Positions 48,001 to 51,000 of a stretch of 64,000 bases of DNA are shown here, in pieces. Location of the stretch: the IMG/VR virus record IMGVR_UViG_2654588054_000003. One strand, 5' to 3'. The position numbers are program-made. Source of the DNA: a virus. Its lineage: Duplodnaviria; Heunggongvirae; Uroviricota; Caudoviricetes. Each line of letters starts with the position of its first letter. Position 1 is the first letter of the stretch.

Positions 48001-51000
48001 CATGTCATAACCCGCTGTGATGGCGGGTTTTTTGTTGCCCGTGCAGGGCAAAAATCGTAGATTATGCGCGGGTGCCTTTCGGCTGATGGCTGGAGGGAGA
48101 ACCTGAAGGCCTGATGTGGAAAGGCCCCGAGTCAAACATTTTGTTTAACCCGAGGCCCTAACCATCATACCTTAAGCAAGTAGAAGGTTAGCGCCTCTCC
48201 ACTCAGGAGGCAAGCGCTATGTCGCAAAAATCGCTCATCACCGTCACAATTTGTATGACGGTAATCTTCACCATCTGGATGTTACACGGCTCGTTGTGTG
48301 AGTTCCGGCTGAATTTGTGGGGAGCGGAGTTTGCGGCGTTCTTACAGTGTAAGCAGTAGGAAAACCGCGACGGGGACGAAAGTCCCCGTCAACTGGTTGC
48401 TGAGGTTCAGCCGATATGGCACCCGTTTCTGGTGAGAGAATGGACGACAAAATTCTCCGGTATATGCAGCGTGTTGTGAGAAATTCCCGCAACCCTGAAT
48501 TTATGAATGAAGTTAAAGACGCCTGCCTTAAAAAGCAGGCGTTTTGCTTTGAGGCACCGGATGGTTTTCTGGTGCTGCGTTCTGTGCTCAGTGACGACGG
48601 TATCCCTTATGTTCTGGTGTTGCTGGGTGTGTGTACGGGGAGTGCCGGTGTTGAGCGTTATCTGCCGGAGGTGAAGACATTAACCAGTCTGGCTGGCGGA
48701 CGCTGGGCTGAATTCCACACGGCAAGGCGGGGATTTATCCGGCTGGGAAAACGTCTGGGCTTTGAGCGAATGCCGGATGATGAGGATGGCTTCATGGTGT
48801 TCAGGATAGCGGTCTGACTGCCACTGTATTCATCATCGTGTGTAAACCAACATTGCACTTCACATTCTGACCCTGCCCCGGCAGGGTTTTTTGTTATCTG
48901 AGGAGCCATAATGGGCGGAAAAAAAGGCGGTGGTGATACCAAAGTAAAACCAACAGCAGCGCAAATAGCACAGGAAGAGGTGGCCTGGAAAGGGTGGCAG
49001 GATTACAAAAATATTCTCCGTCCGGCAGAAGATAACTTCATGGAAAAGGTCGATGACCTTAACAGTGAGCAGCAGTACGACAATATCGCCGGTACAACAA
49101 ATCTGGGATATCAGAAACAGTTTGGTGAAACGCGAAGGGAGCTTGCGGGTAATCTTGCTCAGTCCGGCGTTGACCCATCCAGTGGTCGTTTTAATGCGGT
49201 AATGGATGCAAATCAAAGCGACCAGGTGACCGGGCAGATTGACACGACCACACGGGGGCAGGTATCGCAGGCAGATAAATATATTGCCGGGCTACAGGAT
49301 GTTGCGGCTCTCGGTTCCGGTCAGAAGGCCGATGCGTTACAGAGTTTTAACTCTCTGGCAGACAGCAGTCTGGCAAAAGCCAAATCAGATGCACAGGCGG
49401 CGTTTACAAAACAACAGGGGCGGGCCTCTCTTGTTGGCGCTGGTCTGGGGGCGGTTGGGGCTTATGCAATGCATAAGGCTGGCGGTAGCGGAAGTGGAGG
49501 TTCTAAAACGCCAGACACCGGCGCTAACGCTATTCAGAGTCAGGCTCAGAACTGGAGACTGTAATTATGGAGTATGGCAAATACGAAACTCTCGCAAGGG
49601 CTGGTTATTCAGGAGCAGACCGCCCACAGGGTGACTGGCAGACGTCAGCAGCGCTGACACGCCAACAATACGACGACTGGCGAACCAGATATTTGCCCCG
49701 CGTGGCAAGGCTGGCTGACCTTGGTGAGAACAACAGCCTGATGAATGCACAGCTTGCCCGGGTGGGCGGCCTTGCCACTTCCAGTCTCCGTACAGCGCAG
49801 ATGGCACAGGATAACCAGATGGCGAGATACGGGGTAAATCGTCCGGATAATCCCAACAGTAACACACTGGGTTTGCGTAATGCTCTGGCAATTGCTGGCG
49901 CGAAAAATGGTATCCGTGAAGCAGAGCAGGATCGCCAGATGAACATACTGACGGGGGCTTCTGCACCTGCAAGACAACAACTGAGTGTTGGCGGTCAAAT
50001 GATGACAGCGTAAGGGGGAAGATATGGGGTACGGCTTACTGGATATTGCGAATCAGTCACGGCGTGAGGCATTACAGGGAATAAGTGACGCAGACCGACG
50101 ACGTGAAGAAATTGAGGCTGCGAACAAACAGATGGCGGCGCAACAGAAAGCGCAGAACAAGCAGAATATCGGTACGGGCATTGGTACGGGGGCGGCTATT
50201 GGCGCATCCGTTGGTGGTCCTGTTGGCGCTGTTGCTGGTGCAGTAATTGGCGGCATTGCTGGTTCTTTGTTTTAAGGAGTGGTGAATGAGCGGATTTGCA
50301 CAGGGGTTACTTGCCGGATTCAGCACTGTTGACCAGGCAATGACCCGTCGTAAGGAGCTTGGTTTGCGAGAAGCACAGCTTGCTCAGCAACAGAAAAATA
50401 ACGAGCGCGATTTTGAATTTGCGCAGTCTCAGTTTGAACATAATAAAGACGTTGATCAGCGGAACTTTGATTACAGAGCCAAAGTTGATGACCGCAATTA
50501 CGCACTGCAGGAAAGGGAGTTTAACGCCAACCAGAATTACCGGAATGCGTCGCTGGGGATGGAACAGCAACGACTCCAGTTGCAGAAATACAACCAGCGA
50601 CGGCTTGAGTATAACGATATGCTGGCACGTGATCAGTCGGTGATGGTGGCGCTGGGAAAAGCGATTGATGCAGGTGACCATGATGCGGCCTCTCGTCTGT
50701 TCGGCAAATTATCGGATGCCAACCCCATTAAAATAATATCAACGGAAGGCTATGCTGCGAAGGCGGGTCAGGCCGTGAACAACCTGCAGAAAATCTTTGA
50801 TGATAAGCCGGACAGGGCGATCGATTCGCTGAATACCCCGGAAAATCTCGATGTGCTTTCCGGCGTGTTTGCCCCGGAACTACAACAGCGTATTGGCATG
50901 CCTGATTCAACCGGGGAAAAAACGATAAAAGAGGCCAGGATTGGCAGTATCGTACCGGCGCAGCAGGAAGGGTACGTACTTATTGGCCTTGATCTCACAT

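Follow-up and report, generated by a model that had tools for sequence, protein, structure and literature searches.

A candidate hok/sok-type toxin-antitoxin cassette lacking mok, and distinct from hokW-sokW, in an Stx2a phage

Among the described systems closest to the locus reported here are hok/mok/sok of R1, hokA-mokA-sokA of K-12 and hokW-sokW of phage Sp5. In R1, translation of mok up to the hok Shine-Dalgarno sequence (SD) is mandatory for Hok synthesis (PMC9841398). In Sp5, HokW is a peptide of 51 amino acids (aa) that starts MKQQKAM (Takada et al. 2021; PMC8621323); hokW-sokW brings faster growth arrest and doubles phage release after induction, and a ΔhokW-sokW mutant gives half the phage yield with a 40-min delay while growth is unaffected (PMC8621323). 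The present locus is centred on a 46-codon open reading frame (ORF) at 48219-48359, plus strand, in a 64,000-nucleotide (nt) stretch of the virus record IMGVR_UViG_2654588054_000003 (Caudoviricetes); this whole stretch is referred to as the window. The ORF had been described in an original prediction, made from the sequence alone, as an intact Hok/Gef-family type I toxin gene. The analysis points to a hok/sok-type type I toxin-antitoxin cassette which is a second hok locus, distinct from hokW-sokW, and which lies, as a moron, after the lom terminator and before the next late gene; the probability of this reading as a whole is put at about 0.75.

The peptide itself is already catalogued. In the Hok survey of Escalera-Maurer et al. 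(bioRxiv 10.1101/2025.08.07.668861), an identical peptide is listed as 72_1589, a member of the high-abundance 60%-identity cluster 72, and appears in Table S2 among the homologs picked for toxicity assay (plasmid LRP157). On arabinose induction, 42 of the 45 homologs tested were toxic; 72_1589 is not one of the three non-toxic homologs (19_179, 60_1482 and 69_1540). The assay used an artificial SD and promoter. A lack of toxicity on expression, which the original prediction had named as a refutation, is therefore in effect countered, since the identical peptide falls among the survey's toxic homologs. Peptide 72_1589 and the present locus share the amino-acid sequence; the survey handled the coding sequence alone, by design, with Mok, Sok and the mRNA elements outside its analysis, and the Stx-phage context is not discussed there.

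Compared with R1, the predicted RNA elements show the same closure of the mRNA by its 5' (tac) and 3' (fbi) elements, the alternative tac stem, the Sok-target hairpin, the antisense promoter over the hok SD region and the predicted refolding after 3' trimming. R1 differs in having mok and in a peptide of 52 aa (46 aa here); moreover, the Rfam score of the present locus is under gathering and the Stx-phage copy has no terminator after fbi. K-12 hokA-mokA-sokA gives the best NCBIfam match and has a similar N-terminus (M-x-QK) and tail (AAFL-x-CK); however, hokA belongs to survey cluster 93, has an in-frame mokA, and its model has a cut-off that the peptide falls far under. With hokW-sokW, the locus shares the phage type, the toxin family, RF01794 matches to the hok leader and the antisense promoter hexamers TTGCCT/TAACCT, whereas hokW-sokW belongs to HokD cluster 35, has an in-frame mokW and is an experimentally tested locus.

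The toxin gene and the second hok locus of the window

The gene is placed as follows.

48219-48359, plus strand: hok gene, 46 aa (Hok cluster 72, peptide 72_1589; from Pfam, PHROG and selection)

The ORF runs from ATG to TAG and its translation is MSQKSLITVTICMTVIFTIWMLHGSLCEFRLNLWGAEFAAFLQCKQ followed by the stop. The peptide and strong ribosome-binding site of the original prediction were recovered exactly: AGGAGG lies at 48205-48210, with the ATG 8 nt further 3'. The predicted Hok architecture (N-terminal transmembrane helix, SLCE, AAFL...CK) is also readable in the sequence, where hydrophobic residues 5-22, TICMT, SLCE, GAEF and AAFLQCK can be picked out by eye. The peptide has the length, hydrophobic helix and logo residues of the Hok/Gef family (C16, T18, L30, C31, E32 and E41 in the survey's numbering) and aligns with the survey's family alignment. 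It matches Pfam PF01848 HOK_GEF over residues 8-44 (33.2 bits, E 4e-8; gathering cut-off 22 bits) and, end to end, PHROG 251 'MokW-like host killing' (85.8 bits, E 2.8e-24). The best NCBIfam match is the HokA equivalog NF007290 (38.4 bits, E 9e-10, against a cut-off of 89), and a HokA orthologue was dropped as a candidate on this score. As judged from its sequence, the ORF is a genuine, intact Hok/Gef-family type I toxin gene of a known kind.

RefSeq/PGAP names it 'Hok/Gef family protein' (WP_000078907.1), and phage records name it 'MokW-like host killing', 'small toxic polypeptide' or 'host toxic membrane protein'; it is unannotated in some older records, including phi24B and VT2-Sakai. The toxin is thus already annotated, catalogued and reported toxic as a peptide; the fresh point is a cluster without mok. 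The literature searched, which had subscription papers outside its coverage, yielded nothing on this locus or on hok systems without mok.

Across relatives, 28 distinct peptide variants were found, 27 of them with 46 aa and the other with 47 aa after an in-frame insertion; the termini are invariant and the core is variable but hydrophobic. For 15 unique coding sequences, the median ratio of nonsynonymous to synonymous substitution (dN/dS) is 0.26 at dS 0.82, the ORFs are always intact and the sole indel is in-frame. The peptide is under purifying selection. The ratio is conservative because RNA structure also constrains synonymous sites. A strong SD at 8-nt spacing is kept in the family.

Cassettes of this family are found in several settings. 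The copies in P2-like prophages lie just after ogr, next to host genes, and a plasmid copy lies beside traI (Salmonella). Salmonella enterica also carries tandem cluster-72 cassettes about 490 base pairs (bp) apart, at 3001-3141 and 3491-3631 in one locus (L006) and at 3001-3141 and 3495-3635 in another (L007). The latter pair adjoins a YafO-family toxin gene, at an apparent prophage or island end.

The ORF is not hokW. The sites of the published hokW primers are found at 60164-60184 and 60324-60348, minus strand; hokW-sokW lies about 12 kb away on the opposite strand.

60068-60353, minus strand: canonical mokW/hokW/sokW locus (RF01794 at 114 bits, primers, in-frame mokW)

In the window, hokW is truncated by a deletion of about 70 nt relative to Sp5, as estimated by eye against the Sp5 coding sequence (CDS) and primers. 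The deletion removes Hok codons 32-51 and the stop, leaving a 38-aa Hok that ends in DLCKGGIPRHL; the truncated Mok-Hok frame has 57 aa (60068-60241). VT2-Sakai matches the window's hokW only as far as the deletion point, and the window's version of the locus is found at an identity of at least 99% in only five phage records. Since hokW is truncated, the 46-aa gene may belong to the only intact Hok cassette of this phage lineage. A separate hokW-type locus, 95% identical to E. coli, is present at 13185-13610 of PP818812.1 (hit H81), a record labelled with an odd host as Actinobacillus pleuropneumoniae phage vB_Apl-pPE4.

Two hok homologs are found in just 3.5% of hok-carrying phages (bioRxiv 10.1101/2025.08.07.668861). 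VT2-Sakai/Sp5 (NC_000902.1) encodes the identical 46-aa peptide within a complete cassette in the unannotated lom-orf66 gap (L027, 1053-1407; ORF 1202-1342). Consequently, the published Sp5 ΔhokW-sokW mutant still had one hok locus.

The predicted hok mRNA switch and Sok-like RNA

RNA structure was compared in a family sample of 20 cassettes (19 distinct ones), taken from Stx phages, phage P88, the ends of E. coli and Salmonella P2-like prophages, a Salmonella plasmid contig and Salmonella tandem pairs. Family homology begins at the -10 box, followed by GGGTGCC, and stops just past GGCACCC. The following elements are predicted on the hok strand.

48035-48063, plus strand: putative hok promoter (-35 TTGCCC at 48035-40, 17-nt spacer, -10 TAGATT at 48058-63, then 6 nt to G48070)
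48070-48424, plus strand: predicted hok mRNA core from tac to fbi, 355 nt (from family homology, Rfam start and fold energy)
48070-48083, plus strand: tac element, 5' end GGGUGCCUUUCGGC, pairing with 48410-48424 (full length) or 48118-48128 (tac stem)
48152-48197, plus strand: Sok-target hairpin with the loop CUUAAGCAA at 48171-79; second stem of the Rfam model
48189-48218, plus strand: anti-SD/SD hairpin UAGCGCCUCUCC ... GGAGGCAAGCGCU, sequestering the hok SD at 48205-10; its outer stem is family helix 6
48221-48337, plus strand: long-range helix within the CDS, 48221-34 (start-codon G and codons 2-5) with 48324-37 (codons 36-40)
48369-48390, plus strand: post-stop stem-loop GACGGGGAC-GAAA-GUCCCCGUC (helix 13; nine pairs, five changed on both sides)
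48410-48424, plus strand: fbi element GCCGAUAUGGCACCC, 3' partner of tac in the RNAalifold closing helix

The putative promoter has 8 of 12 consensus matches, under the scan threshold. Its -10 box reads TAGAAT, TAGATT or TAAATT in relatives, and in an E. coli relative TTGAAA-18-TAGAAT stands in the same place. From its spacing, hok transcription would start at G48070. The window sequence folded alone gives the same end closure for the mRNA core, with a minimum free energy (MFE) of -158.5 kcal/mol (z -7.9).

In the RNAalifold structure, the tac/fbi helix consists of 48070-76 paired with 48418-24 and an adjacent 5-bp stem of 48079-83 with 48410-14. Seven of its 12 pairs are near-invariant and five have changes on both sides; 95-97% of cells are paired. 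The double changes in the 5-bp stem keep pairing throughout (CG 11/UA 9, GC 11/CG 9, AU 10/GC 8). For the whole full-length family structure, 98% of cells are paired, compared with 35-43% when partners are slid; 17 pairs are changed on both sides, and the observed covariation was matched by no shuffle. Within the CDS, the long-range helix (helix 7) has 12 pairs with 98.7% of family cells paired, which accounts for the lack of nucleotide change in the MSQKS and AEFAAF codons.

When the 3' end is removed in silico, the 5' end refolds as a local tac stem (48070-48128) and the hairpin at 48152-48197, which forms only in this case. The hairpin has 91% of family cells paired and five pairs changed on both sides, and its loop exposes a segment complementary to the 5' tail of the predicted antisense RNA. 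In the alternative (processed) structure as a whole, 90.6% of family cells are paired. Alignment columns 19 and 20 covary with both tac partners, with identical CG/UA and GC/CG exchanges for each. A 5' segment that co-evolves with two partners, of which it can pair with only one at a time, is what marks the tac/fbi switch of hok as described for R1.

The anti-SD/SD hairpin has a local fold of -13.1 kcal/mol (-15.0 kcal/mol for 48184-48221). It is present in the MFE structures of the full-length RNA and of the mimic of the Sok-bound state, and not in that of the free truncated RNA.

On the opposite strand, the original prediction had placed an antisense Sok RNA within 48040-48360. At the sequence level this holds: the minus strand has a conserved promoter, TTGCCT-17-TAACCT, and a strong terminator hairpin.

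48185-48213, minus strand: antisense (Sok) promoter (-35 TTGCCT, reverse complement of 48208-13; 17 nt; -10 TAACCT, reverse complement of 48185-90), overlapping the hok SD region
48119-48178, minus strand: predicted Sok-like RNA of about 60 nt (single-stranded 5' tail, 18-bp hairpin, UUUCC)

Both hexamers recur in the canonical sokW promoter of the window. All 20 relatives keep the spacing and have TAACCT or TATCCT as their -10 box; EDL933-type copies have a TTGACT -35 box at 18-nt spacing. A consensus promoter scan missed both the hok and the Sok promoter (at most 8 of 12 matches), and they were found by position and conservation. The ends of the Sok-like RNA are placed from promoter spacing and the hairpin, which folds at -33.9 kcal/mol (z -7.2). 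The predicted RNA is fully complementary to the hok leader. Its 5' tail varies among family members, as would be expected for cognate specificity. For Sok and the hokW mRNA, duplexfold gives a cross-talk estimate of -55.8 kcal/mol with large loops, a value from which nothing is concluded.

Some further candidates in this region were rejected. A minus-strand 'terminator' at 48391-48368 is the post-stop hairpin read in reverse, and other weak Rfam matches nearby (Trp_leader, Six3os1, BSnc120 and GlmZ) are terminators or chance. RF01794, the 'sok antitoxin' model, matches the strand of the hok mRNA leader both at 48070-48230 (plus) and at 60179-60353 (minus), and ends at the hok SD/AUG; strand calls made with it need care because the model strand is opposite to that of presumed Sok transcription.

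By analogy with R1, the full-length mRNA would be translationally closed by tac/fbi. Slow 3' trimming would take off fbi and let the 5' end refold to the tac stem; the leader would then form the target hairpin, to which short-lived Sok would bind, leading to cleavage and decay of the duplex. When Sok is lost, Hok would be made, insert in the inner membrane and depolarise or kill the cell. Sok might disappear because the element is lost, because transcription is shut off, or because, after induction, late phage transcription collides head-on with the Sok promoter.

The absence of mok

The original prediction also expected an overlapping mok frame in 48040-48360; this expectation fails. Stops at 48159, 48173, 48181 and 48189 shut all three frames in or just past the Sok-complementary segment. 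There is no ATG, GTG or TTG in 48142-48218, i.e. up to the hok ATG, and there are no near-cognate starts past the last stops. At 48189, the in-frame TAG falls within the invariant AGGTTAG which forms the Sok -10 box. A conserved mok-like frame was found in 0 of 15 relatives, which have sporadic upstream ORFs in differing frames and with differing starts; the VT2-Sakai cassette likewise has no mok frame. A 15-codon ORF at 48114-48161 was rejected as a mok substitute, as it ends 58 nt short of hok and Salmonella relatives do not conserve it. By contrast, an in-frame mok extension is present in K-12 hokA and in the canonical hokW of the window. Among the features that define the hok/mok/sok paradigm, mok is the single one missing from this locus.

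Without mok, Hok must be translated from its own strong SD, and this SD would then be the element under control. Cluster 72 is tentatively proposed to be a mok-independent hok/sok variant, a proposal given somewhat less than an even chance. In such a variant, the tac/fbi switch and Sok would be kept and the toxin translated directly from its own SD; Sok would act via refolding, in which the anti-SD re-sequesters the hok SD, and/or via RNase III cleavage, rather than via a leader peptide. The toxin would then be the second of an Stx2 phage, perhaps redundant with hokW, or the only intact Hok where hokW is truncated.

As a working idea, Sok bound to the 5' arm of the target hairpin would let the 3' arm, as the anti-SD, go back to sequestering the hok SD, besides RNase III cleavage. 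MFE structures with a Sok-binding constraint fit this idea. Release of the anti-SD is a speculative hypothesis, which agrees with the MFE models while the modelled shift in accessibility is small.

If the mok-less reading is right, the locus would resemble aapA3/IsoA3 of Helicobacter pylori, in which the toxin's own SD is regulated, being sequestered by successive structures and freed after 3' processing. aapA3 and hok have been contrasted on own-SD regulation (PMC9841398). The toxin family and RNA sequences of aapA3/IsoA3 are unrelated, so that any likeness would be functional only.

Phage context, possible roles and alternative explanations

Over the 600 bp that surround the ORF, identity is 100% with Escherichia phage Lyz12581Vzw (Sepvirinae), with some 20 Stx2a-converting phages and with many enterohaemorrhagic E. 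coli (EHEC) chromosomes. Versions at 92-96% identity are found in EDL933-Stx, phi24B, Stx2 phages I and II, Min27 and others. The window is an Stx2a short-tailed phage.

The upstream neighbour, at 47249-47986, is an Ail/Lom protein (Pfam, 102 bits). The ORFs downstream of hok belong to PHROGs of unknown function, with one weak match to 'virion structural protein'. The original prediction had placed the gene between lom and the virion-protein genes; the lom part is confirmed, while the virion part is plausible and relies on this single weak match. A terminator marks the upstream boundary of the cassette and also accounts for a weak Rfam Trp_leader match at the same position.

48009-48029, plus strand: lom intrinsic terminator (stem-loop then T-run)

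The next phage gene is an ORF at 48416-48817 (plus strand; 133 aa, PHROG 610, unknown function). Its start ATG (48416) and a GAGG lie inside the hok 3' untranslated region/fbi, at 48402-48424; because of this overlap, its translation could depend on the folding and processing of the hok mRNA. In an E. coli prophage copy, an intrinsic terminator stands at the position of this gene's start.

Elsewhere in the window, other Rfam matches at gathering level are located at 8165-8223, 19690-19887, 23080-23328, 24737-24996 and 62975-63063. The families at those sites are the lambda cIII thermoregulator; C4 antisense, isrK and c4-a1b1; three tRNAs; STnc100 and AsxR (the anti-stx2 small RNA region); and sRNA-Xcc1. 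These remaining matches are consistent with an Stx2 lambdoid prophage.

Within the phage, the cassette may hasten lysis, as for hokW, or may serve prophage addiction, or exclusion of other phages and defence; the original prediction had suggested prophage stabilisation or post-segregational killing. The sole experimental data on a hok locus in this phage type favour faster lysis and phage release (PMC8621323). One explanation is that the cassette is mainly a lysis accessory: Q-antiterminated late read-through past lom would swamp or occlude Sok, Hok would help to permeabilise the membrane, and Sok would silence the toxin in the lysogen. The cassette points the same way as the late genes and its Sok promoter is directed against oncoming late transcription, as this explanation would have it; hokW-sokW of Sp5 hastens growth arrest and doubles phage release (PMC8621323), and the second cassette, intact in Sp5 ΔhokW-sokW, could explain why the published phenotype is only partial. 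However, the same cassette is present at P2-like prophage ends and on a plasmid beside traI, where there is no late read-through; its function therefore cannot depend on late read-through. A role mainly in lysis is possible, though rather unlikely.

A comparable, and likewise doubtful, chance is given to an addiction or defence module, in which loss of the prophage or plasmid, or shut-off on superinfection, would remove Sok and lead to killing (post-segregational, or as abortive infection). This would suit the conservation of a complete hok-type RNA switch for delayed activation and the presence of the cassette on the backbones of conjugative plasmids and prophages; plasmids are stabilised by R1 hok/sok, which also lowers T4 plating (cited in PMC8621323). 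However, excision or curing of Stx prophages is rare, and deletion of hokW-sokW was without effect on growth (PMC8621323).

A number of observations weigh against a working hok/sok cassette. The original prediction had proposed a covariance-model search for hok/sok RNA; this gave a divided result, with RF01794 matched over the full model at 48070-48230 (E 1.7e-7), though at 42.1 bits against a gathering score of 59. The match was found in E-value mode; at gathering thresholds, this model reports the canonical hokW leader alone. The NCBIfam HokA and Hok models both score the 46-aa peptide far under their cut-offs. The Stx-phage copy has no intrinsic terminator after fbi, the next plus-strand candidate (48524-48541) being inside the following ORF; an E. 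coli P2-like prophage copy has one about 20 nt past fbi. The predicted unpaired probability of the SD changes little between states (0.26 vs 0.18, a small ensemble shift), and the start codon is paired in every modelled state. Since mok is mandatory in R1, a mok-less locus could be translationally silent (PMC9841398). Finally, some copies decay: one Salmonella copy (L019, 1352-1716) has lost its 5' end. In this copy, the 46-aa ORF, fbi and antisense promoter are intact, and unrelated sequence stands in place of the first ~30 nt, which would hold the hok promoter and tac.

These last points would suit a translationally dead relic, whose RNA elements and ORF persist via recent phage spread while the toxin is never made without mok: the locus has no mok, which has to be translated in R1, all modelled states leave the SD and start codon mostly paired, and one copy has decayed. 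Against this, members of the family occur in E. coli, Shigella and Salmonella, carried by phages, P2-like prophages and plasmids, and across that spread, at dS ~0.8, the ORFs are intact, with dN/dS at 0.26 and an in-frame indel tolerated. Selection maintains both RNA conformations and the antisense promoter, the strong SD is conserved, and a silent toxin would need no retained antitoxin promoter. A relic is thus improbable, and a functional cassette is much more likely.

A chance small ORF in an intergenic spacer, for which its mere 46 codons and the missing annotation in several phage records (e.g. VT2-Sakai and phi24B) might speak, is already refuted, as far as sequence evidence goes, by the Pfam (E 4e-8) and PHROG (E 2.8e-24) matches and by a conserved family under purifying selection, and toxicity is reported for the identical peptide.

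The toxin gene by itself adds nothing new; the remaining interest of the hok/sok-type cassette lies in its mok-less architecture and in an overlooked redundancy of two hok loci in Stx2 phages. The R1 paradigm holds mok to be indispensable, and an abundant cluster without mok is a natural test case for Sok control without a leader peptide. Stx2 phages carry two hok cassettes, and studies so far have dealt with hokW-sokW alone; the modest phenotype of Sp5 ΔhokW-sokW may therefore underestimate the contribution of Hok to lysis and to the release of Stx phages.

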